In this document: one piece after another, positions 2,717 through 25,762 of the stretch
How the letters are laid out: each line of letters starts with the position of its first letter
Numbering within the stretch: position 1 is the stretch's first letter
Assembly (NCBI RefSeq): GCF_034096925.1
Contig: NZ_JAWZSQ010000003.1
Location: 197,532-229,531, forward strand
Origin: Patulibacter defluvii
GTDB lineage: Bacteria > Actinomycetota > Thermoleophilia > Solirubrobacterales > Solirubrobacteraceae
Direction: 5' to 3'
DNA length: 32,000 bases
Notes under the pieces: model-generated
What the model saw: only the letters and a program-made list of their open reading frames with translations
Database searches by the model: none
What the model was told of the DNA's origin: nothing
Translations under genes and position numbers: made by a program

Positions 2717-5659
2717 CTAGCGGCGGGTGGTCTTCGCCTTGCCCGTCGCCGACTTGCGCTTGGCGGGCTGCGCCTTGCGGACCGCGCACGGGGTCCCGAT
2801 CCGCACGCTGGCCGCCCGCGGCGCGGCGCCGTTCTGCCCGGCCAGCGCCACGCGACCGGTCAGCTTGCGGCCGCAGAGCGCCCGGGTGGTGGCGATGATC
2901 CCGTGGCGGCCGCCGTTGATGTTGAGCGTGAACGACGTGATCGGCTGGTCGGGGATCGCCGCGAACGTCGTCACCAGCTGCTTGCGGCGGATCGCGGTCG
3001 TCGAGCGGAGGTCGATCGCCACCTCGCCGCGCAGCGCCACGTAGAGCGTCGGCAGGGTCTTGATCTCGCGCCCCGTCCTCGGATCGCGGCGGACGCCCTT
3101 GACGAAGTAGACCGGGCCGCTGAGCGGGCGGTCGAGGATCGACGTCTCGGCGGTCGCGGAGCCGACGACCGACGACGCCGGGCAGCTGCCCTTCAGCGCG
3201 TCCGCCGCCTCGCAGAGGCCCCGGGCGTTGGCCGCCGCCAGCGAGAGCGACGTCGGCAGCGCGACCGTCGCCGACCGCAGGCCGGCCTCGCCCTCGGCCT
3301 GGGTCACGGTCGCCGTCACGCGCGGGTGCTTGTGCTTGCCCATCTGGGTCTTGTTGGCGACCGCCAGCCGCACCTTCGGCGCGAACCGCAGCTGCTGGCA
3401 GCCGGTGAACGACAGCGGCGCGGCCGGGCTGGCGGTGGCGCCGCCGGCCGAGGTCAGCGTCGCCGCGACCGCGCCGGTCGAGCACGAGGTCGGGTTGCGC
3501 AGGAAGCCGGGGCGGTCGATCCGCAGCGTCAGCTCGCGCAGCCGCAGCAGGATCCCCTCGTGGACCTGCGGCAGCGGATCGCTGTCGACCGTCACCTGGG
3601 CGCTGGCCGGGTCGATTCGCAGTGCCTGCCGGACGACGACGTGCCCCAGGTCGTAGGGGCCGGCGAGCGCGCGGACGATCGCCACCATCCCGAACGGCGC
3701 ACCCTTGTAGCCGCCGGTCAGGTACAGGCTGCCGTTCAGCGCGTAGGGCGCGGCGCCCGGCCCGGCCTTGGTCGCGACGCTGCCGATCCGCGAGGCGGCG
3801 GGGCAGCTGGCGGCGGCCACGTCCTCCTCGGCGCAGCGCTGGACGCCGCGCAGCTTGGCCGTCATGCCGAGCGGCAGGCGCGCGCCGACGCCGCCCAGGT
3901 ACTGGTCGCCGTCGGGCCGCGAGAGCGTCACCGTCAGCGGGGCGAAGGCGCCCGACTGGGCGGAGCCGGCGGCGATCGCGAAGCCGGGCGAGAAGCCGAG
4001 CGGCCCGCAGCCGGTGACGTTCAGCGGGCTGCCGACCGCGACCGGCGCCGTGCCCGAGTAGGGCGTGAAGGTGGTGGTGGCCGTCGCGGCGCCGCAGCTC
4101 TGCGGCGAGGCGACGATCGCCTTCGCGCCGCCGTCGAAGTCGAGCGTCATCCGCGAGAACGGCAGCTGCGGGTTGTCGGCGAAGCTGGTGGTCAGCTGGC
4201 CGCTGGTGGGATCGGCGTCGACGCGGCCCTTGAGCCGGATCGCGATCCCGCGGCCCTCGGCGGTCACGAACAGCCGGTAGCGCTGCCCGGCCTGCGGCTG
4301 ACCGAGGTAGATCGCGCCCTCCAGCGGCTCGTCGAGAAGCGGCGACTGGATCGCGACCCGGCCGACCTTCGACGCCGGCGGGCAGCTGATCGGCTGGTCG
4401 GTGCCCTGGGCCAGGTCGCGGTCGCTGCACGCCTCCAGCCCGTCGGCGGCCGAGGGGCTGATCGACATCCCGGGCGGCAGGGTCAGCTTGACGTCGCGGA
4501 CGTGGGCGGCGGCGAGGCTGCCGCCGTCCTTGGTCTGCGGGACCGACAGCGAGACCGAGAGCGGGGTCGGCGCGTCGGCCTGCAGCGCGCTCGGACCGAA
4601 GCTCGTGGTCGGCGCGAACGGCAGCCGCTCGCAGCCGTCGCTGCCGACCGGGGTCGTGTCGCTCGAGCGCGAGCTCTTGCCCTTGGTCGAGGTGATCTCG
4701 ATCCGGGTCGTCTGGGGCCCGCTGCAGCTGGTCGGGTTGGTCAGGAAGGCGGTGGTCTTGTCGTCCACCTGGAGCCCGCCGCGCGAGTCGGGATCGGTCT
4801 GCAGGTCGGGGCCGGCGAGGGTCAGCAGCGCCATCCCGGCGAGCCCCCGCTCGGGGTCGTGGACCGGGTCGCCGGGGACGCCCCAGAGGGTCAGCTTCGA
4901 CCAGACCAGCAGCGGGTTCCGCGGCAGGTTCCTGATCTCGACGTAGGTGCCGTGGTCGGAGGGCCGGACGCCGCCGACCAGGTCGATCGGGTCGAGGTTG
5001 CCGTCCATCATGTAGGAGAGCGTCACCTGGCGCGGGTTGATCGCGAACCGCGCGACCTGGCCCTTGGCGCGGGTCATGTTGTAGACCGGCGCGACCGCCT
5101 CGACGGTGTTGCGGCCGGTGAAGATCGTGCCGCGGACCCGCATCCGCTGGATCCCGACCTGCGACGCGACGGGGCAGCCGCTGCCGGGCGGGCCCTTGCG
5201 CACGGCCGCGTAGTCCGGGTCGCCGGAGTCGCCGATGATCGAGAGGTTGTCGAGCTGCTCGTCGGTGCAGGTCGGGATCGCGGTCGGATCGGCGACCAGC
5301 CCGGCCGGCAGGTCGACGCGGATGTCGCGCGTGTAGCCGTAGGGCTCGCCGGGGTAGGTGTGGTTGCCGTTGGTGACCTCCTGGCTGGCCAGCCCGAACT
5401 CGGCGCTCGCGAAGGCCGGGTGGCCGCCGGCCTGGGTGAAGAGCGAGGCGCGGTCGGCGTTGCTCCCGTCGCTGGTCTTGAAGACGCCGGCCGAGAAGCT
5501 GGTCAGCCCGAAGTCGGTGTCCGGCAGCGCCGGTGGGGCCGGCATCGAGTCGGCGGCCATCGCCGGCCCGGCGACGAGCAGCGAGGCGAGGCCGAGCGCG
5601 GCGGCGAGGCCACGGGACGCGCGCCCCGTCCGCGCACGCCGATTGGAGGTGAGACCCAC
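2717..5659 (-). CDS. Large secreted Cys-rich protein of unknown function (980 aa) with internal ~200-aa module repeats and a Lys/Arg-rich C-terminal tail
   Basis: GTG start. The signal peptide is MGLTSNRRARTGRASRGLAAALGLASLLVAGPAMAADS. G/C at codon position 3 is strong throughout. The motif set NPTSC ... GC..L.F.P ... LP.G ... C...SCP..S.[VI]G ... PL.G.[IV]Y repeats three times. The protein ends in AQPAKRKSATGKAKTTRR. I recognise no family. Confidence 0.8.
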   Translation of the reverse strand: MGLTSNRRARTGRASRGLAAALGLASLLVAGPAMAADSMPAPPALPDTDFGLTSFSAGVFKTSDGSNADRASLFTQAGGHPAFASAEFGLASQEVTNGNHTYPGEPYGYTRDIRVDLPAGLVADPTAIPTCTDEQLDNLSIIGDSGDPDYAAVRKGPPGSGCPVASQVGIQRMRVRGTIFTGRNTVEAVAPVYNMTRAKGQVARFAINPRQVTLSYMMDGNLDPIDLVGGVRPSDHGTYVEIRNLPRNPLLVWSKLTLWGVPGDPVHDPERGLAGMALLTLAGPDLQTDPDSRGGLQVDDKTTAFLTNPTSCSGPQTTRIEITSTKGKSSRSSDTTPVGSDGCERLPFAPTTSFGPSALQADAPTPLSVSLSVPQTKDGGSLAAAHVRDVKLTLPPGMSISPSAADGLEACSDRDLAQGTDQPISCPPASKVGRVAIQSPLLDEPLEGAIYLGQPQAGQRYRLFVTAEGRGIAIRLKGRVDADPTSGQLTTSFADNPQLPFSRMTLDFDGGAKAIVASPQSCGAATATTTFTPYSGTAPVAVGSPLNVTGCGPLGFSPGFAIAAGSAQSGAFAPLTVTLSRPDGDQYLGGVGARLPLGMTAKLRGVQRCAEEDVAAASCPAASRIGSVATKAGPGAAPYALNGSLYLTGGYKGAPFGMVAIVRALAGPYDLGHVVVRQALRIDPASAQVTVDSDPLPQVHEGILLRLRELTLRIDRPGFLRNPTSCSTGAVAATLTSAGGATASPAAPLSFTGCQQLRFAPKVRLAVANKTQMGKHKHPRVTATVTQAEGEAGLRSATVALPTSLSLAAANARGLCEAADALKGSCPASSVVGSATAETSILDRPLSGPVYFVKGVRRDPRTGREIKTLPTLYVALRGEVAIDLRSTTAIRRKQLVTTFAAIPDQPITSFTLNINGGRHGIIATTRALCGRKLTGRVALAGQNGAAPRAASVRIGTPCAVRKAQPAKRKSATGKAKTTRR

Positions 5660-8519: not shown

Positions 8520-9260
8520 GTGGGAGCACGGCTGCGAGACGGAGCGACGGCGGTCGCGGCGACGCTGATGATCAGCGCGGCGGCGGGCTGCGGGAGCGAC
8601 GAGCCGACGGCGGCGACGTCCCGGATCCCGCCGACGGCGAAGGTCCTGATCACGGGCCCGGACGGGAGCGGCATGGCGATCTGGCACCCGCGGACGTTCG
8701 CGGACGCGGTGGCGGGCAGCGACGTCGTGGCGGTCGCGACCGTCCGCAGCGTCCGCGAGGGATCCCAGATCGAGGGCTCCCCGAGCCCGCCGAGCGAGGA
8801 GCTGCCGCCGCCGCTGTCGGCGTTGGCGGTCCAGATCGACGTCGAGCGGGTCATCAACCGCAGCGGCTGGGCCCGCGAGCTGCCCTCGGCGCCGACGCTC
8901 TACCTGCTCGATCCCGACGAGGACGCGCCGCTGGGCGTGACCGCCGGTCACCGCTACGTCTTCTTCCTCGCCGAGTTCGACCAGGTGGTCGAGGGGAACG
9001 ACCGGGCGTACCACACGGCTTGGGCAGGCGCCTACGTGGGTGTCGACGGCGACCGGCTCGAGCAGCTGCCGGAGCACGAGCCGGGAACGACCCTGGCGCC
9101 CACCGGCTCGATCGACGACCTCACCGCCACCGCCCAGCAGGTCAGCGTCGACCGCGAGCTCGCCACCGCCGACGTCAGCGCCTCTCCCAACCCGATGCTG
9201 ACCAACCGGCCGCGCTGGCGCGAGCGCTCCGGCTACCGCCCCCAGGACGACGACCGATGA
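8520..9260 (+). CDS. Putative lipoprotein, function unknown
   Basis: GTG start with GAGGAGG upstream. The signal plus lipobox-like sequence is ATLMISAAAGCGSDEP. G/C at codon position 3 is high. The stop overlaps the next gene's start (ATGA at 9257-9260). Confidence 0.65.
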   Translation: MGARLRDGATAVAATLMISAAAGCGSDEPTAATSRIPPTAKVLITGPDGSGMAIWHPRTFADAVAGSDVVAVATVRSVREGSQIEGSPSPPSEELPPPLSALAVQIDVERVINRSGWARELPSAPTLYLLDPDEDAPLGVTAGHRYVFFLAEFDQVVEGNDRAYHTAWAGAYVGVDGDRLEQLPEHEPGTTLAPTGSIDDLTATAQQVSVDRELATADVSASPNPMLTNRPRWRERSGYRPQDDDR

Positions 9261-9820
9261 CTCGCGCGCGCCGCGCCGCCGGGCGGACCCTCGTCCTCCT
9301 GCTGGCGGCGATCGGGCTCCAGCCGTCCGCGGCCCACGGTCACATCGCGTACGTCACCGACGACGACTGCTGCGTCCGCTTCCAGCACCAGGACCACGAC
9401 CGCGACTTCACGCTCTGGAACCAGATCGACAACGCCTCCTGGAAGGCCGGCGCCCGCCGCGCCCAGCTGCACCTGCACGACATCTACGACGGCTCGCTGC
9501 GGTTCCCGACCGCCGGCTCCTCGGGCAGCGCCGACATCGTGCTCGTCGATGCTCCCTACCCCCTGCCGTTCGTCGGACGCGCCTACCACTGGCGCCACCA
9601 CGGTGGCCAGGGTCGCCTGCAGATGAACACCAACTACGGCCTGACCGAGAACCAGGCCAAGGCCGTCGTCTGCCACGAGCTGAGCCACTTCACCGGCCTC
9701 GCCCACAGCAGCAACGCCTCCGACTGCATGATCGACGACCTCGCCTACCTGGCCAGCACCAACCTCGCGGTCTCGCACCGCGACCAGAACCGCGCCGAAT
9801 GGAACGCCTCGGGCCACTAG
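9257..9820 (+). CDS. Small secreted metzincin (matrixin-like) zinc metalloprotease
   Basis: This is the last 187 codons of track ORF 7154..9820. The signal peptide is MTRARRAAGRTLVLLLAAIGLQPSAAHG. It carries SADIVLV, then the HExxHxxGxxH(S) motif as CHELSHFTGLAHS, and a Met shortly after (SDCMID) that could be a Met-turn. Confidence 0.7.
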   Translation: MTRARRAAGRTLVLLLAAIGLQPSAAHGHIAYVTDDDCCVRFQHQDHDRDFTLWNQIDNASWKAGARRAQLHLHDIYDGSLRFPTAGSSGSADIVLVDAPYPLPFVGRAYHWRHHGGQGRLQMNTNYGLTENQAKAVVCHELSHFTGLAHSSNASDCMIDDLAYLASTNLAVSHRDQNRAEWNASGH

Positions 9821-9842
9821 TCGCGAGCACCGGCCCAGCACC

Positions 9843-9908
9843 TATCGCCCGCGTATCGGGAACCGCATACGCGCCGGCAGCAGGCCGCGGTCTTGACTGG
9901 CCGCATGA
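9843..9908 (+). promoter_or_regulatory. van promoter/operator module, copy A (includes the vanH start codon)
   Basis: TATCGCCcgcGTATCGggAACCGCaTACGcGCcGGC-N14-TTGACTGGcCGCATGA. By hand alignment, 48 of 66 positions match copy B at 13917-13982, with identical spacing to the ATG. The module contains TATCG twice, 11 bp apart, and an inverted repeat GCGTAT-N10-ATACGC. Confidence 0.6.
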
Positions 9909-10942
9909 TCCGCAGCGATCCGGCCCGAACCGCGGCACGCCCCCGACCGCCGGCGCCCTGGGCCGCGCCGGCCACCGCCGCGACCCGGATCACGGTCTAC
10001 GGGTGCGAGCAGGACGAGGCCGCGCTCTTCCGGGCCCTGGCGCCCGGCTTCGACGTCGACGCGACCATCACCGCGGCGCCCGTCTCGGTGGCCAACGTCG
10101 CGCTGGCGGCGGGGAACCGCTGCGTCAGCGTCGGGCACAAGGCCGAGGTCACGGCGGCGACGCTGCGCGCGCTGGCCGACGTGGGCGTGACCTACCTCTC
10201 CACACGGAGCGTCGGCTGCGACCACATCGATGCGGAATGCGCGCGGGACGTCGGCATCAGCGTCGGAACCGTCGCCTATTCGCCCGACAGCGTCGCGGAC
10301 TACACGCTGATGCTGATGCTGATGGCCGTCCGGCACGCGAAGGCGATCGTCCGCCGGGCCGACGTCCACGACTACCGCCTGCACGACCAGCGCGGTCGCG
10401 AGCTGCGCGACCTGACCGTCGGCGTGATCGGCACCGGTCGCATCGGCAGCGCGGTGATCGACCGGCTGCGGGGCTTCGGCTGCCGGGTCCTGGCCCACGA
10501 CCGCCGTCCGGGCGCCGCCGTCGACCACGTGCCGCTCGACGAGCTGCTGCGGCGCAGCGACGTCGTCACCCTCCACACGCCCCTGACCACCGAGACCCAC
10601 CACCTGCTCGACCAGGCCCGGATCGCGCGGATGAAGCCGGGCGCCGTCGTCGTCAACACCGGACGCGGCGCGCTCGTCGACAGCGCGGCGCTGGTCGCGG
10701 CGCTGGAGAGCGGCCGGCTGGGCGGCGCCGCGCTCGACGTCGTGGAGGGCGAGCAGGGGATCTTCTACGCCGACCGCCGCGACCGGCCGATCGAACCCGG
10801 CCCGCTGCGGCGGCTGCAGGAGCTGCCGAACGTGCTCGTCAGCCCGCACACCGCCTACTACACCGACCACGCGCTGCGCGACATGGTCGAGCACACGATC
10901 GCCAACTGCCTGGCGTTCGCCGGGGTGATCGAGCATGCGTAG
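9905..10942 (+). CDS. vanH: D-lactate dehydrogenase (pyruvate reductase), VanH
   Basis: ITVYGCEQDEAALF, VAYSPDSVADYTLMLMLMAVR, VGVIGTGRIGSAVIDRLRGFGC, GGAALDVVEGE and SPHTAYYTDHALRDMV read almost colinearly with enterococcal VanH as I remember it. ATG 9905 is preferred over the track's TTG 9893 because that TTG belongs to the conserved TTGACTGG DNA block. There is no other in-frame start before ITVYGC. Confidence 0.9.
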   Translation: MIRSDPARTAARPRPPAPWAAPATAATRITVYGCEQDEAALFRALAPGFDVDATITAAPVSVANVALAAGNRCVSVGHKAEVTAATLRALADVGVTYLSTRSVGCDHIDAECARDVGISVGTVAYSPDSVADYTLMLMLMAVRHAKAIVRRADVHDYRLHDQRGRELRDLTVGVIGTGRIGSAVIDRLRGFGCRVLAHDRRPGAAVDHVPLDELLRRSDVVTLHTPLTTETHHLLDQARIARMKPGAVVVNTGRGALVDSAALVAALESGRLGGAALDVVEGEQGIFYADRRDRPIEPGPLRRLQELPNVLVSPHTAYYTDHALRDMVEHTIANCLAFAGVIEHA

Positions 10943-11981
10943 GTCGAGGCTCGCGGTCGTCTTCGGCGGCAGTGGCGAGGAGCACCCGATCTCCGTCAAG
11001 TCCGCGCGCGAGGTCGCCAAGCACCTCGACCCCGACAAGTACGAGACGGTCTTCGTCGGGATCACCCGCGCCGGGGCCTGGCGGCTCTGCGACGGTCCCG
11101 ACGGCGACTGGGAGCGGCGCAGCACCCGCGCCGCCGTCCTCTCCCCGGACCGCAGCCGCCCCGGGCTGCTGGTGCTGGACGGCGATCGCCACGAGACCGT
11201 CCCCCTCGACCTGGTGCTGCCGGTGCTGCACGGCAAGTTCGGCGAGGACGGCGCGATCCAGGGGCTGCTGGAGCTGTCGGGCATCCCCTACGCCGGCTGC
11301 GACGTGCCCAGCTCCGCGCTCTGCATCGACAAGGCCCTGGCCTACGTCGTGGCGGGGAGCGCCGGAATCGCGACGCCGCGCTTCTGGACCGTCGCGCCCG
11401 GTGAGGAGATCGACGCGGAGCGGTTGCGCTTCCCGGTCTTCGTCAAGCCGGCGCGCTCGGGCTCGTCGTTCGGCGTCACCAAGGTCTCCGCTCCCGGCGA
11501 GCTGGAGGACGCGGTCCGCGACGCGCGCCAGTACGACGCCAAGCTCGTGATCGAGGAGGCGGTCGTCGGCAACGAGGTCGGCTGCGCGATCCACGGCAAC
11601 GGCGCCGACCTCTTCGCCGGCGAGGTCGACCAGATCGCGCTCTCCGGCGGCTTCTTCCGGATCCACCAGGAGCAGGCGCCCGAGCAGGGCTCCGACAACG
11701 CGACGGTCAACGTCCCGGCCGACATCTCCGCCGAGGCCCGATCGCGGGTGCAGGAGACGGCCAAGGCGATCTACCGCGCCCTCGGCTGCCGCGGGCTCGC
11801 GCGGGTCGACATGTTCCTGACCGCGGACGGGACGGTCGTGCTCAACGAGGTCAACACCTTCCCCGGGATGACCTCGTACAGCCGCTACCCGCGGATGATG
11901 GCCGCGGCCGGGCTCTCCTTCGCCGAGGTCCTCGACCGGATCGTGGCGTCGACGCTGGAGGGCCACGACGGTGACCGCTGA
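10935..11981 (+). CDS. vanA: D-alanine--D-lactate ligase (VanA/VanB type)
   Basis: LAVVFGGSGEEHPISVKSA is typical of the Ddl family. The C-terminal block FFRIHQEQAPEQGSDNATVNVPADISAEARSRVQETAKAIYRALGCRGLARVDMFL...LNEVNTFPGMTSYSRYPRMMAAAG closely follows the VanA sequence (..FRIHQE..EKGSENA..), not housekeeping Ddl. It overlaps vanH by 8 nt. Confidence 0.92.
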   Translation: MRRSRLAVVFGGSGEEHPISVKSAREVAKHLDPDKYETVFVGITRAGAWRLCDGPDGDWERRSTRAAVLSPDRSRPGLLVLDGDRHETVPLDLVLPVLHGKFGEDGAIQGLLELSGIPYAGCDVPSSALCIDKALAYVVAGSAGIATPRFWTVAPGEEIDAERLRFPVFVKPARSGSSFGVTKVSAPGELEDAVRDARQYDAKLVIEEAVVGNEVGCAIHGNGADLFAGEVDQIALSGGFFRIHQEQAPEQGSDNATVNVPADISAEARSRVQETAKAIYRALGCRGLARVDMFLTADGTVVLNEVNTFPGMTSYSRYPRMMAAAGLSFAEVLDRIVASTLEGHDGDR

Positions 11982-12597
11982 GTTCGCCTTCGTCGACGAC
12001 GTCGTCGCGGGCGTCCGCTGGGACGCCAAGTACGCCACCTGGGACAACTTCACCGGCAAGCCGGTCGACGGCTACGAGGTCAACCGGATCGTCGGCGCGC
12101 GGGCGCTCTGCGACGCGCTCGCCGTCGCCCGCGACGAGGCCGCCGTGCGCGGGTTCGGCCTGCTGCTGTGGGACGGCTACCGGCCCCAGCGCGCCGTCGA
12201 GTGCTTCCTGCGCTGGTTCGAGCAGCCGGAGAACGGGCGCACGAAGCAGCGCCACTACCCGAACATCGACCGCCGCGAGATGGTCGACCGCGGCTACGTC
12301 GCTCCCCGCTCGGGGCACAGCCGCGGCAGCAGCGTCGACCTGACGCTCTTCGACCTGGCGACCGGCGAGCTGGTGCCGATGGGCGGCGGCCACGACCTGA
12401 TGGACCCGATCTCCCACCACGACGCGCCCGGCGTGAGCGCGGTCGAGGCCGCCAACCGCCGGCAGCTGCGGGCGCTGATGGAGGCCTCGGGCTTCCGCGC
12501 CTACGCCTGCGAGTGGTGGCACTACGCGCTGCGGACCGAGCCCTACCCCGCCACCTACTTCGACTTCCCGATCAGCCATGCGCTTCTCGGCCGCTGA
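11971..12597 (+). CDS. vanX: D-Ala-D-Ala dipeptidase, VanX
   Basis: DAKYATWDNFTGKPVDGY, LLLWDGYRPQRAV, SGHSRGSSVDLTL (Zn ligands) and EWWHY are VanX hallmarks. The GTG start overlaps the ligase gene by 11 nt. Confidence 0.92.
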   Translation: MTAEFAFVDDVVAGVRWDAKYATWDNFTGKPVDGYEVNRIVGARALCDALAVARDEAAVRGFGLLLWDGYRPQRAVECFLRWFEQPENGRTKQRHYPNIDRREMVDRGYVAPRSGHSRGSSVDLTLFDLATGELVPMGGGHDLMDPISHHDAPGVSAVEAANRRQLRALMEASGFRAYACEWWHYALRTEPYPATYFDFPISHALLGR

Positions 12598-13906
12598 GCT
12601 GGCGGACCACCTGGGCGCCGAGCTGGTCGGCCCCGACGTCGCCGTCGAGGGCGCCAGCATCGACACGCGGACGCTCCGGCCCGGGCAGCTCTACGCGCCG
12701 ATCGTGGCGGCGCGCGACGGCCACGACTTCCTGCCGGCGGCGCTCGCGGCGGGCGCCGCGGCCTACCTGACCGCGCGCGAGCCGGTCGGCGGGACCGCCA
12801 TCCGCGTGCCCGACACCGCCGCCGCGCTGCTGCGGCTGGGGGCGCTCGGACGCGACAGGATCGCCGGCGCGATCGGCATCACCGGCTCGGTCGGCAAGAC
12901 CACCACCAAGGACCTGCTGGCCGGCTGCCTGGCGTCGACCTTCCCGACCGCGGCCAGCGAGCGGTCGTTCAACAACGAGCTGGGCCTGCCGCTGACGCTG
13001 CTCGGCGCGCCCGAGGCGACCCGCTGGGTGGTGCTGGAGATGGGCGTCCGGCGCGAGGGCGACATCGACCGGCTGTGCCAGGTGGCCCGGCCCGAGGTCG
13101 GCGTCGTGACCGCCGTCGACCTGGCCCACGTCGAGTTCCTGGGCGACCTCGACGGCGTCGCTCGGGCCAAGGGCGAGCTGGTCGCCGGGCTGCCGCCCTC
13201 GGGGCTGGCCGTCCTCAACGTCGACGACCCGCGGGTGCGGGCGATGGCCTCGCGCAGCGCCGCCCGCGTGCTGGGCTACGGCACCGGTCCCGAAGCCCAG
13301 GTCCGGGCCGACGACGTCGCGCTCGACGACGAGCTGCGCGCCCGCTTCCGGCTCTCGTCGCCGTGGGGCCGGACGGAGGTCCGGCTGGGGCTGCGCGGCG
13401 CCCACCAGGTGACCAACGCGCTGGCCGCGGCGGCGGTCGCGCTCTGGGCCGGGGTCCCGATCGAGGCGGTCGCCGCGGCGCTGGCCGAGGGGCGGGCGTC
13501 GCCGTGGCGGATGGAGGTCCACCACGTGCCCGCCGGCCCGCTGCTGGTGGTCGACTGCTTCAACGCGATCCCGGCGTCGGCCGAGGCGGCGGTGCGCTCG
13601 CTGGCGGCGCTGCCGGGCGAGCGCAGGCTGGCGCTGCTCGGACTGATGGCCGAGCTGGGGGAGCGGAGCGCGACCGAGCACCGCCGGATCGCCGCCGTGG
13701 CCGAGCGGCTCGGGGTCCAGGTGGTCGGCTACGAGACCGACCTCTACGGCGAGGCGCACGTGACCGGCGTCGACGATGCCGTCGCGCTGCTGCGGACGCT
13801 GGGTCCGCGCGACGCGGCGCTGGTGAAGGGCAGCCGGGTGGCGCGGCTCGAGGACGTGGTCCACGCCTACGGCCGGGCCCGGGGCGTGCCGTCGCTGGCG
13901 GGGTAG
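12578..13906 (+). CDS. murF: UDP-MurNAc-tripeptide--D-alanyl-D-alanine (D-Ala-D-Lac) ligase, MurF paralogue
   Basis: SIDTRTLRPGQLY, the P-loop ITGSVGKTTTKDL, NNELGLPLTL and MEV are Mur-ligase/MurF signatures. It overlaps vanX by 20 nt. Confidence 0.9.
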   Translation: MRFSAAELADHLGAELVGPDVAVEGASIDTRTLRPGQLYAPIVAARDGHDFLPAALAAGAAAYLTAREPVGGTAIRVPDTAAALLRLGALGRDRIAGAIGITGSVGKTTTKDLLAGCLASTFPTAASERSFNNELGLPLTLLGAPEATRWVVLEMGVRREGDIDRLCQVARPEVGVVTAVDLAHVEFLGDLDGVARAKGELVAGLPPSGLAVLNVDDPRVRAMASRSAARVLGYGTGPEAQVRADDVALDDELRARFRLSSPWGRTEVRLGLRGAHQVTNALAAAAVALWAGVPIEAVAAALAEGRASPWRMEVHHVPAGPLLVVDCFNAIPASAEAAVRSLAALPGERRLALLGLMAELGERSATEHRRIAAVAERLGVQVVGYETDLYGEAHVTGVDDAVALLRTLGPRDAALVKGSRVARLEDVVHAYGRARGVPSLAG

Positions 13907-13916
13907 GCGGCGGGGG

Positions 13917-13982
13917 TATCGCCGACGTATCGCAAACCGCGTACGTGCTGGCGACACCGCTCCCCGTTGACTGGTCGCATGA
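13917..13982 (+). promoter_or_regulatory. van promoter/operator module, copy B (includes the start codon of the PhyH-like gene)
   Basis: TATCGCCgacGTATCGcaAACCGCgTACGtGCtGGC-N14-TTGACTGGtCGCATGA. It has the same block order and the same 62-nt distance from TATCGCC to the ATG as copy A. It begins 11 nt after the murF stop. Confidence 0.6.
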
Positions 13983-14773
13983 GCTACAGCAACGCAGCGA
14001 CGGAGCCGCTGGCGAAGACCGTGGCGGAGGAGGGCTGGGCCGTGGTCGGGACGCTCGACCGCCCGCTCTCCCGCCGGCTGCTGGGGGCGGTCGACGAGGT
14101 GGCGGCACGGTCTCCCGAGGCCGGGGCCGGGGGCCAGCTCCACCTGCTCTCGGGCCTGGCCCAGCACCCGCGGCTGGCGGCGGTCGTCGACTGGCCGCCG
14201 CTGCTGGCGCTCGCGGTCGAGCTGCTCTCGCCCAACATCTACATCAACCACTCGCACCTGGACGTCCACCCGCCGCACCCGCCGACCGGCGCCCACCGCT
14301 GGCACCGCGACAACGGCCTGATGGGGCGCGACATGCGGCTGCTCTGGCGCGACCAGCCGCGGGTGACGCTGAAGGTCGCGATCTACCTGACCGACGTCGA
14401 GTCGGCGGACGACGGCGCGCTCGAGGTGGTCCCGCGCAGCCACCTCGACGCGGAGTCGCGGTACCCGACCGAGGAGCAGCCCGACGGCGTGCCGATCCTC
14501 GGGCCGGCGGGCACGGTCGCCGTCTTCGACGCCCGGCTCTGGCACCGCCGGCGGGACAACCTCGGCGCCCGCACCCGGCGGGCGATGTTCTGGGGCTACA
14601 GCTACCGCTGGATGACCTCGCGCGACACGCCGTTCGCCGACGTGCCGGCGTGGGCCACGCAGCCGCCGGTCCGCCGCCAGCTGCTCGGCGACCCGACGGT
14701 CGACCCGTTCTACTGGGCGGCCGGCGAGCTGGCGCTCGATCCGCGAGCCGGTGCGTTCCAGGAGGCGGCGTGA
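13979..14773 (+). CDS. PhyH-family Fe(II)/2-oxoglutarate-dependent dioxygenase, substrate unknown
   Basis: WHRD (HxD), LKVAIYLTDVESADDGALEVVPRSH and the distal His in FDARLWHRR match phytanoyl-CoA-dioxygenase-type signatures. ATG 13979 is preferred over TTG 13967 for the same reason as vanH. The stop overlaps the vanY ATG by 1 nt. Confidence 0.8.
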   Translation: MSYSNAATEPLAKTVAEEGWAVVGTLDRPLSRRLLGAVDEVAARSPEAGAGGQLHLLSGLAQHPRLAAVVDWPPLLALAVELLSPNIYINHSHLDVHPPHPPTGAHRWHRDNGLMGRDMRLLWRDQPRVTLKVAIYLTDVESADDGALEVVPRSHLDAESRYPTEEQPDGVPILGPAGTVAVFDARLWHRRRDNLGARTRRAMFWGYSYRWMTSRDTPFADVPAWATQPPVRRQLLGDPTVDPFYWAAGELALDPRAGAFQEAA

Positions 14774-15423
14774 TGCGGGCCGACCAGCTGACGGGGATGG
14801 GCACGATCCACCGCGCCCCGATCCGGATCCGCAAGCGGCGCGTGGCCGCCCTGCTCGTCGTCCTGGGGGCGATCGTGGTGGCGATCAGCGGCCGCTCGCC
14901 GGGACCGTCGGCGTCGATGGTCGACGCGGTCGGCGGCGAGCACCGCGGCAGCGGCTGGCGCGGCGAGCTGGGCGTGGCCGCCGGGGCCGTGCCCGACGGC
15001 ACGACGGTCTTCGACGGCGGCGTCCCGGGCGTCGCCAAGCTCGACCCGGCGCTGCTCGACGCGGTTCGTCGGGCCGCGTCGCAGGCGGCGAACGAGGGGA
15101 TCGCGTTCGTCGTCGACAGCGGCTGGCGCTCGCGGGCGTACCAGCAGCGGCTGCTCGACGAGGCGGTCGCGAAGTACGGCTCGCAGGCCGAGGCGTCGCG
15201 CTGGGTGGCCACGCCCGGCACCTCGGCCCACGTCTCCGGTCAGGCGATCGACATCGGTCCCGCGGGCGCCGCCGCCTGGCTGGCCCGGCACGGCTCCGCC
15301 TACGGCCTCTGCCGGATCTACGGCAACGAGCCCTGGCACTACGAGCTGCGGCCCGACGCGGTCGCCTCCGGCTGCCCGCCGGTCTACGCCGACCCGACGC
15401 AGGATCCGCGGATGCGGCAGTGA
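14773..15423 (+). CDS. vanY: Membrane-anchored D,D-carboxypeptidase, VanY (peptidase M15B)
   Basis: This is the last 216 codons of track ORF 13075..15423. The N-terminal anchor is RKRRVAALLVVLGAIVVAI. The M15 Zn motifs are SAHVSGQAIDI (SxHxxGxAxD) and EPWHYE. Confidence 0.85.
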   Translation: MRADQLTGMGTIHRAPIRIRKRRVAALLVVLGAIVVAISGRSPGPSASMVDAVGGEHRGSGWRGELGVAAGAVPDGTTVFDGGVPGVAKLDPALLDAVRRAASQAANEGIAFVVDSGWRSRAYQQRLLDEAVAKYGSQAEASRWVATPGTSAHVSGQAIDIGPAGAAAWLARHGSAYGLCRIYGNEPWHYELRPDAVASGCPPVYADPTQDPRMRQ

Positions 15424-15459
15424 CGGCCGTCGACCGGTGGGCCGGTTCGACGTCCGGTT

Positions 15460-16212
15460 TCAGGAGGAGGGTGCCGCCGATGCGTTCTCGGCGTCGAGCG
15501 CCGCACGCAGGCGGCGGTCGGCACGCTCCATGTGGGCGCGCATCGCGGCCCGGGCGGCGTCCGGATCGGCGCCGGCGATCGCGTCGACGATCGGCTCGTG
15601 CATGTCGAACGACGACGCCGTCTCGCCGGCGTGCTCGAGCACCCGCTTGGCCCAGACACCGAGCAGCGAGCGGAGACTGGTCACGAGGCTGATGAAGGTC
15701 TCGTTCTCCGTCGCGGCGGCGATCTCCAGGTGCAGCGCGACGTCCGCCTCGACGTAGCGATCGACGTCGTCGCCCGCCTGCCGGAGCGCGTCCAGGGCCT
15801 TGCGGAGCCGGGCGGTCGTCTCCTCCGTGGCGCGCTCGGCGGCGAGTCCCGCGACCAGCACCTCGATCTCGGCGCGCGCCTCGACCAGGTCGAAGATCCG
15901 CCGCTGCCCGAGCAACAGGCCCCATTCGATCACCTGCGGCAGCAGATCCGAGCCGGACTGCGACAGGTAGGTCCCGTCCCCCTGACGCACGTCGAGCAGG
16001 CCGAGCAGGCTGAGCGACTTGATCGCCTCGCGGACCTGTGAGCGGCCGACGCCCAGCGCCTCGGCCAGCTGCCGCTCCGGCGGGATCTTCGAGCCCGGGG
16101 AGACCTCGCCCGACAGCAGGTAGTCCAGCAGCGTCCGCGTGATCTCCGTCACCGGCGGCCGGCGGGGGGCGATGCGGAGGCTCTGGGGGAGGGCGCTTGA
16201 CTCGTTGTGCAT
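15460..16212 (-). CDS. GntR-family transcriptional regulator, FadR subfamily (FCD domain)
   Basis: The winged HTH is KIPPERQLAEALGVGRSQVREAIKSLSLLGLLDVRQGDGTYL. An all-helical C-terminal domain with conserved His/Asp (HLEIAAAT...MHEPIVDAI) follows. Confidence 0.9.
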   Translation of the reverse strand: MHNESSALPQSLRIAPRRPPVTEITRTLLDYLLSGEVSPGSKIPPERQLAEALGVGRSQVREAIKSLSLLGLLDVRQGDGTYLSQSGSDLLPQVIEWGLLLGQRRIFDLVEARAEIEVLVAGLAAERATEETTARLRKALDALRQAGDDVDRYVEADVALHLEIAAATENETFISLVTSLRSLLGVWAKRVLEHAGETASSFDMHEPIVDAIAGADPDAARAAMRAHMERADRRLRAALDAENASAAPSS

Positions 16213-16227
16213 GAAGATGGCGGATCA

Positions 16228-16243
16228 GGTCGACCGGTCGACC
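16228..16243. promoter_or_regulatory. Operator palindrome 1 (putative GntR site, in front of gntR)
   Basis: GGTCGACCGGTCGACC is a perfect 16-bp palindrome that ends 15 nt from the gntR start codon. It contains GT-N2-AC units, consistent with the generic GntR-family operator form. Confidence 0.6.
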
Positions 16244-16281
16244 AAGCCTAGAGCACCGTCCCGAAGGATGGCTCCCAAATT

Positions 16282-16297
16282 GGTTGACCGGTCGACC
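16282..16297. promoter_or_regulatory. Operator palindrome 2 (overlaps the -35 of the aminotransferase promoter)
   Basis: GGTTGACCGGTCGACC is self-complementary at all but one symmetric base pair. It is identical to the site at 25640-25655. Confidence 0.6.
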
Positions 16298-16318
16298 TCA
16301 AACGGTTACGCTCGGCCC
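16284..16318 (+). promoter_or_regulatory. Sigma-70-type promoter predicted to give a leaderless mRNA starting at ATG 16319
   Basis: TTGACC (16284-16289), N17, TACGCT (16307-16312), N6, ATG (16319). There is no Shine-Dalgarno sequence. Confidence 0.45.
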
Positions 16319-17632
16319 ATGGCCCAGTCCTCCAACCCCTTGGCGCTGCTGGGCGGGACCCCCGCGCACCGCCTGCCGAACCCCAAGTACCCGCGCCTCG
16401 GCGCCGACCTCCACGTCCGGATCGCGGACGCGCTCGACCGCGGGCCGATGCAGGGCCTCAGCAAGGGCCACCCGATCATCGAGGAGCTGGAGACGCGGCT
16501 CGCCGCGTACCACGGCGTCGACCAGGTGCTCGCCTCCAGCTCGGGCCACGGGGCGCTCCAGTCCGCCCTGATCGGGCTCGAGGTCACCGGCGGCGACGAG
16601 GTGCTCACCTCGCCCTACTCCTGGGGGGCCTCGGTCTCCTGCATCCTGCACAACGGCGCGGTGCCGGTCTTCGTCGACATCGACCGCGACAACGGGCTGC
16701 TGGACCCGGCCCGGCTCGCCGACGGACTGACGCCGCGGACCCGGGCGATCCTCGTGCCCCACCTCTACGGGCAGCCGGCGGACATGACCGCGATCATGCG
16801 GTTCGCCGAGGATCACGACCTGCTGGTGATCGAGGACGGCAGCCAGGCGCACGGCGCGCGTCACCGCGGCACCCGGGTCGGCGCCTTCGGTCACGCCGGC
16901 GGGTTCTCCACCAACGGGGTCAAGCCGCTCGCCACCACCGAGGGCGGGTACATGGTCACCCGCGTTGCCGACGTCTACTGGAAGGCGACCATCAGCGGTC
17001 AGCACGCCGGCCGCGGAGAGCTGCTGGGGCGGGCCAGCGAGCCCGGCTTCCCCGACGAGCTGCGGCCTCTGGTCGACTCGCTGATCTACTCCTACCGCCC
17101 GAACGTGGTCTCGGCGCTGATGGCGCTGGACCGGCTCCCGCACCTGGAAGAGGAGAACGCCGCGCGGCGCTGGAACGCGGCGCGGCTCTTCGAGGGACTG
17201 CGCGACGTCGAGGCGCTCAGCTGGCCGACGGTCGACGAGGCCGACGAGTGCGTCTTCCACATGGTGACCCTGAACTTCGACGCCGAGCTGGCGGGCGTCG
17301 AGCGCGACGCGTTCGTCGCCGCGCTCGCCGTCGAGGGCGTGCCGGCGGTCCCGTACGTGGCCAAGGGCCTGCATCGCTCGGAGCGGCTGAGCCCGAGCTA
17401 CGGCGGCCCGCGGGTGATGTGGACGGAAACGATCCGCCGGTCGGGCATCGACCCGACCGCCGTCGAGCTGCCGGGCTGCGACGCCAAGGTCGCCCGCTCG
17501 ATCGAGATCCCGTGGAACTACTTCGAGCGCGACCCCGACCTGATCGACAGCCTGGTCGGCGCCTTCCGGAAGGTCCAGGCGGAGCTGCCCGCGCTGCGAC
17601 GGCACGCCGATCGGCACCAGGCGACGGTCTAG
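16319..17632 (+). CDS. DegT/DnrJ/EryC1/StrS-family PLP-dependent (sugar/cyclitol) aminotransferase
   Basis: The internal ATG at codon 61 of track ORF 16139..17632 is used. Family-typical features are LALLGG.P, SSSGHGALQSALIGL, TSPYSWGASV, DIDRDNGLLD, IEDGSQAHGA and a probable PLP Lys in FSTNGVKPL. Confidence 0.85.
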   Translation: MAQSSNPLALLGGTPAHRLPNPKYPRLGADLHVRIADALDRGPMQGLSKGHPIIEELETRLAAYHGVDQVLASSSGHGALQSALIGLEVTGGDEVLTSPYSWGASVSCILHNGAVPVFVDIDRDNGLLDPARLADGLTPRTRAILVPHLYGQPADMTAIMRFAEDHDLLVIEDGSQAHGARHRGTRVGAFGHAGGFSTNGVKPLATTEGGYMVTRVADVYWKATISGQHAGRGELLGRASEPGFPDELRPLVDSLIYSYRPNVVSALMALDRLPHLEEENAARRWNAARLFEGLRDVEALSWPTVDEADECVFHMVTLNFDAELAGVERDAFVAALAVEGVPAVPYVAKGLHRSERLSPSYGGPRVMWTETIRRSGIDPTAVELPGCDAKVARSIEIPWNYFERDPDLIDSLVGAFRKVQAELPALRRHADRHQATV

Positions 17633-25639: not shown

Positions 25640-25655
25640 GGTTGACCGGTCGACC
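25640..25655. promoter_or_regulatory. Operator palindrome 3 (in front of the ABC transporter operon), overlapping a TTGACC-N17-TAGGGT promoter
   Basis: GGTTGACCGGTCGACC is identical to the site at 16282-16297. TTGACC (25642-25647), N17, TAGGGT (25665-25670), N6, ATG 25677. Confidence 0.6.
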
Positions 25656-25762
25656 AATGTCGGCTAGGGTCTTCCCATGCAAGGAGCAGCACGAGCTTCG
25701 AACCCCGGGCAGCGGCCCGGGCGGCCGACGCGCGACACGGCCGACCGCGACGGCGCCGGACG

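Follow-up and report, generated by a model that had tools for sequence, protein, structure and literature searches.

Two segments of DNA in the genome of Patulibacter defluvii, each ending in the start codon of a gene, resemble one another closely, and the locus raises the question of why a block of this kind should stand twice in front of genes related to glycopeptide resistance. The preliminary description of this DNA had read the pair as a regulatory module preceding two van sub-operons. We analysed the two copies, called here A and B, within the window, that is, the whole stretch of 32 000 nt (G + C content 74.5%), and compared them with other genomes; loci of other genomes are designated by L and a number. 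Judged from sequence comparison, both copies very probably represent a conserved actinobacterial van promoter that is activated by a response regulator and is apparently leaderless, a cognate P. defluvii VanR being assumed.

The module pair and the genes behind it

The copies at 9843–9908 and 13917–13982 are identical at 48 of 66 positions in an ungapped alignment, and the flanks on both sides show background identity only. The distance from TATCGCC to the ATG is 62 nt in both copies; these values agree exactly with those first read from the sequence. A 36-nt upstream block (three mismatches or fewer) occurs in the window only at these two sites, the number expected from 100 shuffles being 0. 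The two copies are also the only window sites of the 16-nt block TTGACTGGNCGCATGA, for which 0.49 are expected. A profile HMM built from 96 modules of other genomes, the window copies being left out, retrieved both copies with the same E-value (table 1) and found no third site.

The module contains a direct repeat of TATCG at module positions 1–5 and 12–16, with a period of 11 bp, and an inverted repeat CGTAT-N10-(A/G)TACG. Relative to the start codon, the elements of box A are TATCG at −62 to −58, TATCG at −51 to −47, ATACG at −38 to −34 and GGCAGC at −29 to −24, the last standing where the family consensus has GGCAAC. The window copies depart from the consensus at −46/−45 (GG/CA for AA) and at −26 to −24 (AGC/GAC for AAC). 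In both copies the hexamer TTGACT is separated from the ATG by 6 nt. It lacks the A found at position 2 of the canonical −10 element, and its earlier description as a non-canonical −10 element is supported. The ATG is preceded by GGCCGC in copy A and by GGTCGC in copy B, 6 nt that offer no usable Shine–Dalgarno sequence. In relatives that have GGAGGC at this place, the motif ends 1 nt before the ATG, too near for a ribosome-binding site. A consensus scan of positions 9200–16400 revealed no canonical sigma-70 promoter and no intrinsic terminator.

Table 1. Coordinates of the van promoter modules and of the genes behind them in the window of P. defluvii.
Feature	Position	Strand	Basis
Module A, complete van promoter module, from the box to about +27 of vanH	9841..9932	+	HMM, E = 5.9e-18
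Putative VanR box A	9843..9881	+	Position frequencies, HMM; box co-occurs with vanR in 88 of 120 loci listed
−10-like hexamer TTGACT, copy A	9893..9898 (−12..−7)	+	T−12, T−11, A−9 and T−7 at least 87% conserved
vanH (D-lactate dehydrogenase)	9905..10942	+	Pfam and NCBIfam vanH models; annotated 345 aa
vanA-type D-Ala-D-Lac ligase	10935..11981	+	NCBIfam D_ala_D_lac, 559.8 bits (cut-off 550)
vanX D-Ala-D-Ala dipeptidase	11971..12597	+	NCBIfam dipept_VanX, 374.7 bits (cut-off 320)
murF-like ligase, last gene of operon A	12578..13906	+	TIGR01143 murF, 335 bits
Module B, second complete van promoter module	13916..13999	+	HMM, E = 5.9e-18; orthologous modules before phyH in relatives
−10-like hexamer TTGACT, copy B	13967..13972	+	Sequence, HMM
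PhyH-family Fe(II)/2-oxoglutarate dioxygenase gene, first behind module B	13979..14773	+	Pfam PhyH, E = 1.3e-13; annotated 264 aa
vanY D,D-carboxypeptidase	14770..15423 (start GTG 14770 or ATG 14773)	+	Pfam VanY, E = 3e-14; NCBIfam vanY models

Both ORFs behind the modules had been reported to begin with MTGRM. This shared start is an artefact and arises because the mechanical ORF caller starts at the TTG of TTGACT, an in-frame codon 12 nt before the ATG. In the public annotation both proteins begin at the ATG (345 and 264 aa, each with 100% identity and coverage), and in genomes with a spacing of 7 nt between TTGACT and ATG that TTG is out of frame. The N-terminus of VanH is MIRSDPARTAARPR, and the ATG at 9905 is the sole in-frame start between itself and the conserved ITVYGCE motif. 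By analogy with mapped promoters of the same kind (see below), we infer that this ATG is also the transcription start and that the vanH mRNA is leaderless.

The genes of operon A (vanH-vanA-vanX-murF) have overlapping or abutting ends, and the murF stop codon is separated from box B by 10 nt. Gene clusters of the type vanHAX, sometimes with murF, have already been noted in Solirubrobacterales (PMC8698665). Of the two van sub-operons named in the preliminary description, the second consists of phyH and vanY, the latter having been hidden by a spurious ORF. The PhyH protein begins with MSYSNAATEPL. The start of vanY overlaps the phyH stop codon (GTGATG) and has a GGAGG ribosome-binding site 4–7 nt ahead of it, and from this arrangement the two genes are predicted to be translationally coupled. 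The window vanY product is 72% identical (tblastn) to the VanY of locus L001.

The ORF at 14751–15692, considered as the gene after phyH, was rejected as spurious. It gave no hit in Pfam, and the true gene, vanY, lies in a different frame. Mechanical ORF lists merge the vanY frame into a 782-aa ORF (13075–15423). A separate module precedes vanY in most relatives, unlike the vanY of the window.

Pfam analysis of about 40 ORFs and tblastn revealed neither vanR nor vanS in the 32 kb window, nor any other response regulator or histidine kinase. A small gene on the forward strand (about 9260–9820) carries a zinc-metalloprotease motif, HELSHFTGLAHS, with a weak match to Pfam Peptidase_M10 (E = 9e-6). 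It ends 22 nt before box A, at the site at which relatives carry a divergent vanR–vanS pair.

The same geometry of hexamer and start codon had also been claimed for three other promoters of the window. The hexamer at 16307 is followed after 6 nt by the ATG at 16319; the one at 25665 precedes an ORF of 32 codons only. Both hexamers (TACGCT at 16307, TAGGGT at 25665) follow an identical 16-nt sequence, GGTTGACCGGTCGACC, which is present twice on the forward strand (16282–16297 and 25640–25655) and is in each case succeeded by 9 nt and a TANNNT hexamer. The sequence includes a −35-like TTGACC and the palindrome GGTCGACC. Its first copy lies between a divergent GntR/FCD regulator gene (15460–16212, reverse strand) and a DegT-type aminotransferase gene (ATG 16319). 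Since the ATG at 25677 opens only 32 codons, the transcript from the second copy probably has a leader. The GGTTGACCGGTCGACC repeat is probably a shared operator.

The module in other genomes

A 29-nt pattern derived from the box alone, TATCGNCNNNRTATCGNNAANNNNRTACG, was searched in a collection of 185,579 species genomes. It matched at least 120 loci in other genomes, with approximately 17 chance matches estimated for the whole collection under uniform base composition. Among the matches listed, the downstream part of the module, which lies outside the search pattern, is also present in 125 of 134 instances. Its consensus is GGCAAC, 11 nt, TT(G/C)A(C/A)T, 6 nt, and ATG or GTG. In the 134 instances listed, the offset of the start codon from the box is 62 in 99 cases, 63 in 23 and 61 or 64 in three, and a start codon is absent in nine. 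The earlier proposal that conservation resides in shared regulatory DNA is supported, the module standing upstream of van genes in at least 120 loci of other genomes.

The box is regularly accompanied by van genes. At least one of them is present in 110 of the 120 loci listed, a VanR gene in 88 and VanS in 78. The VanR proteins are 84–94% identical to a Streptomyces VanR; the box-linked VanR scores best on the NCBI VanR-O model (454 bits, versus 93 on VanR-A). In the loci listed, vanR typically begins about 25 nt from the box on the opposite strand. The TATCG repeats 11 bp apart had been likened to an OmpR/PhoB-type, VanR-like site; their conservation, and the usual vicinity of vanR, support this comparison. 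Among the matches listed, the genes directly behind the module code for VanY (about 40), VanH (14), VanK/FemAB (10), VanJ-like (five) and VanZ-like (four) proteins. Others encode MurF (three), alanine racemase (two), an S11 DD-carboxypeptidase, an ABC ATPase, lipoprotein-like unknowns and PhyH. Among loci retrieved through VanH and PhyH homologues, two Solirubrobacterales-type MAGs and Streptomyces have the module upstream of vanH, and in Streptomyces it also precedes a murF-vanK operon.

Further module-driven genes, of unknown or unexpected type, are present in relatives (L142 5022–5936, L132 1070–2023, L145 about 200, L151 about 343, L158 about 2689, L031, L071 and L093). Among them are an S11 (PBP5-like) DD-carboxypeptidase that carries the common N-terminal peptide described below, Cys-rich lipoprotein-like proteins for which Pfam gives no hit, and, between murF and phyH, an unassigned gene.

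Because a pattern search fixes some positions by construction, conservation was checked in a second set of 64 distinct modules, which were obtained through PhyH protein homology in metagenomes and of which 39 match the pattern exactly. In this set the box positions are at least 90% conserved, and both TATCG repeats at least 92% (at least 59 of 64). The −10 hexamer is TTGACT in 38 modules, TTCAAT in 11 and TTGAAT in nine.

Copy A agrees with the vanH modules of other genomes at 61–64 of 80 positions and with copy B at 55 of 80. Since copy A is nearer to foreign vanH modules than to its neighbour, the two copies appear to be old and maintained, with no recent duplication; on this comparison they would be old paralogues, each kept with its own gene.

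Where vanR faces away from vanH or vanY, one box of about 36 nt seems to serve two divergent promoters. The reversed box is seen both at the shared divergent vanR/vanH box and at a stand-alone Streptomyces vanR promoter. In L001 (9908–10000), L002 (9915–10000) and L004 (about 5340–5402), the reversed box upstream of vanR is succeeded, after about 10 nt, by TAGCAT and then, usually 6 nt further on, by ATG; in L001, TAGCAT lies 13 nt before the called GTG. By its sequence, vanR also looks leaderless.

Complete modules were also found in records assigned outside the Actinomycetota: Chloroflexi-type MAGs (L020, L115), Vicinamibacterales MAGs (L027, L050, L123), a Steroidobacteraceae MAG (L062) and a Mesorhizobium loti contig (L061). 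Most of them adjoin VanR (85–91% identical), VanS or VanY. They reflect either horizontal transfer of the regulator together with the promoter, or mis-binning or contamination, about which a warning for such MAGs has been published (PMC9689679).

The closest experimental counterparts are promoters of Streptomyces coelicolor, whose vanSRJKHAX cluster is under VanRS control (PMC6767563). Table 1 of PMC3160421, citing Hong et al. 2004, includes vanH, vanK and vanR among the S. coelicolor genes with a transcription start mapped at the start codon. The promoters given there are GAGGCGCCTTGAATAGAGGCATG for vanH (TTGAAT-AGAGGC-ATG), CCGCCGCCTTGACTGGGGGCATG for vanK (TTGACT-GGGGGC-ATG) and TAATCT-N7-ATG for vanR. 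On a matrix built from the −20 to +3 part of the module, the vanH promoter of S. coelicolor reaches 21.6 bits and its vanK promoter 30.8 bits, as against 25.0 bits for copy A and 18.5 bits for copy B. The other 284 ATG-ending 23-mers of the window have a mean of −19 and a maximum of 2.2, and other leaderless S. coelicolor genes range from −33 to +11. The proposal of a leaderless, activator-dependent transcript gains from this comparison, as the core matches that of the S. coelicolor vanH and vanK promoters listed as experimentally leaderless. For an actinomycete VanR homologue, Kilian et al. 2016 described the binding motif as still to be determined and reported gel shifts that failed. In the literature searched, we found no defined actinomycete VanR site, EMSA or footprint.

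Proposed mechanism and alternative explanations

We propose the following mechanism. Phospho-VanR, of the OmpR/PhoB family and the VanR-O/VanR-Sc type, would bind the box from about −62 to −24. The box (TATCG-N6-TATCG, ATACG, GGCAAC) would cover the place of the −35 element, and VanR would recruit RNA polymerase to the intrinsically weak −10 hexamer TTGACT at −12 to −7. With no A at position 2, this hexamer should make for a weak promoter unless an activator assists. Transcription would start at the A of the ATG and yield an mRNA that has neither leader nor Shine–Dalgarno sequence. Copy A would drive vanH-vanA-vanX-murF and copy B phyH-vanY. Translation of phyH would depend on the 5′-terminal AUG, while vanY, with its normal GGAGG, would be coupled to phyH. 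As phyH has no ribosome-binding site, it would need a promoter copy of its own, although it follows murF closely with no terminator between them. Conservation, spacing, the association with van genes and vanR, and homology to the mapped S. coelicolor promoters were established directly; VanR binding, the transcription start in P. defluvii and inducibility we infer. We hold with considerable confidence that the feature is a VanR-dependent leaderless van promoter of a known kind, here in a member of the Thermoleophilia.

Other explanations of the module have to be weighed against this one. The inverted repeat was correctly reported in the preliminary description, where it was suggested to suit a dimeric repressor; CGTAT-N10-ATACG would then be an operator, and the promoter would become active once the repressor is released, not through an activator. 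The bases of the repeat are indeed conserved (C at −53, TAT at −51 to −49, ATACG at −38 to −34), and a protein bound there could block RNA polymerase. However, the arms are just 4–5 bp long, and in about half of the instances an A at −52 breaks the pairing. A −10 element without the key A at position 2 would be weak unaided, the gene that consistently accompanies the box codes for an OmpR/PhoB-type activator, and van expression in S. coelicolor needs VanRS (PMC6767563). As the homologous promoters are known to be regulated by an activator, the repressor reading finds no support, and we consider it very unlikely. The inverted element may relate to bidirectional use of the box, as the same box serves vanR in the reverse orientation.

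There is no need to invoke an alternative sigma factor, which had also been considered, and the spacing of the AAC motif does not fit an ECF promoter. In such a promoter, GGCAAC would provide the ‘AAC’ −35 element: the motif at −29 to −24 is almost invariant, the ECF sigma-E promoters of Streptomyces have an AAC motif in their −35 and a TC motif in their −10 region, and envelope-stress sigma factors are induced by glycopeptides. Yet only 11 nt separate AAC from TTGACT; a spacing of 16–17 nt would place the −10 element at about −7 to −3 (TGGCGGC, with no CGTC-like motif) and the transcription start downstream of the conserved ATG, whereas the mapped S. coelicolor starts in the table cited above sit at the ATG (PMC3160421). 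In the loci listed, it is vanRS that accompanies the module, and no sigma or anti-sigma gene does so. An ECF-type promoter is highly improbable on these grounds. That the two copies are a neutral repeat, produced by a recent local duplication or by a mobile intergenic element and without regulatory role, is scarcely credible. Two similar non-coding stretches 4 kb apart might be taken for such a repeat, but among the loci compared, more than 120 genomes from many orders, the module stands only before van-related genes and keeps a constant spacing to the start codon. Copy A resembles foreign vanH modules more closely than it does copy B, and the HMM detects no further copy in the window. The VanR-activated promoter remains our preferred explanation.

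Coding-region extension, phyH and comparison with known systems

Conservation of the module runs past the ATG to about +27, with the consensus ATG ACC TAC AGC GAA CCA GCA CGA AC. Non-homologous proteins encoded behind the module (L010–L129) have in common the N-terminal peptide M-(T/S)-(Y/H)-S-(E/Q)-P-A-R-T-A-A-R-R. Its carriers include VanY, VanH, VanK and VanJ-like proteins, one MurF and unknowns. The window copies (9905–9932 and 13979–13999) retain just part of this extension. Codons ending in A make up 50% at codons 5–9, compared with 5.7% at codons 50–150 of the same genes. By group, their fraction at codons 5–9 is 0.52 in VanH, 0.60 in VanK, 0.57 in VanY, 0.42 in unclassified genes and 0.07 in three MurF genes. 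The first 42 nt of the module-driven mRNAs have a mean folding energy of −7.2 kcal/mol, against −14.0 kcal/mol for internal 42-nt windows. The excess of A-ending codons and the weak 5′ folding point to a constraint at the nucleotide level.

This pattern suggests that start codon and first codons travel with the promoter as one cassette. The cassette would comprise the divergent vanR −10 element, the VanR box, the weak −10 element, the start codon and about nine CA-rich, weakly folding codons. Because a leaderless promoter is inseparable from its start codon, in-frame fusion of the cassette to unrelated genes would have occurred repeatedly, leaving the N-terminal scar M-T/S-Y/H-S-E-P-A-R-T-A-A-R-R on VanY, VanH, VanK, VanJ and others. 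The A-ending codons 5–9 could act as an enhancer of leaderless translation, or as a contact for VanR or RNA polymerase. We put forward only tentatively, and regard as somewhat doubtful, the full proposal of a portable cassette from about −82 to +27 that is repeatedly fused in frame, leaves a scar peptide and recruits genes such as phyH as an accessory resistance gene. If it is correct, the PhyH-family dioxygenase gene would be an unrecognized accessory glycopeptide-resistance gene.

The module stands directly before phyH in 38 of 42 judgeable metagenome loci, and in two more it lies about 55 nt further upstream. It also precedes phyH in L001 (about 14096), L007 (10001) and L009 (10001). In the metagenome loci (L130–L186) the genes usually follow one another as [module]vanHAX-murF, [module]X, [module]phyH, [module]vanY, and L007 has a phyH-vanHAX-murF operon that begins with phyH. 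In soil Solirubrobacterales-like bacteria, phyH belongs consistently to the genes driven by the module. The solved structures nearest to the PhyH protein are fungal meroterpenoid dioxygenases (E about 1e-3). Among the matches listed in a full-text literature search, ‘phytanoyl-CoA dioxygenase’ was not found together with vanY or vanHAX.

Within the window the outcome is largely ordinary, the two copies being promoters of a single known regulon. More novelty lies in the consensus box, its coding-region extension and the phyH gene. The comparison provides a sequence-level definition, comprising box, spacing, −10 element and start codon, of the site that accompanies VanR across Actinomycetota, and the motif is specific enough for VanR regulons to be read from genomes and metagenomes. 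Such a readout flags candidate glycopeptide-resistance functions, among them the PhyH-family dioxygenase, the S11 carboxypeptidase and several unknown lipoprotein-like genes. The resistance operons of deep-branching soil Thermoleophilia share their switch with those of Streptomyces, which fits a transfer of the regulator together with its promoters.

Among known regulatory sites, the pho box of PhoB/PhoP is similar in its direct repeats with an 11-bp period over the −35 region, its poor core and its dependence on an activator. It differs in repeat sequence, regulator and signal, and the van module adds a third, inverted element and the conserved GGCAAC. The promoters PvanH and PvanR of the enterococcal VanA type are reportedly activated by phospho-VanR. 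They resemble the present case in that a VanR of the OmpR/PhoB family activates its own promoter and the resistance promoter through upstream repeats. Enterococcal transcripts, however, have leaders and ribosome-binding sites, and the enterococcal VanR is only distantly related, the box-linked VanR scoring 454 bits on VanR-O and 93 on VanR-A.

The VanRS-dependent, leaderless promoters of S. coelicolor vanH and vanK (and vanJ) are the nearest. The host here belongs to the Thermoleophilia, no vanRS lies adjacent, and the P. defluvii operons differ from those of S. coelicolor in that murF is joined to vanHAX and the second operon is phyH-vanY. Over the 23 nt compared, the S. coelicolor vanH and vanK promoters have the same core, TTGACT or TTGAAT followed by 6 nt and ATG, and likewise control genes of van resistance. 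Other Streptomyces carry the complete box ahead of vanH and of the murF/vanK operon and, in reversed orientation, ahead of vanR.
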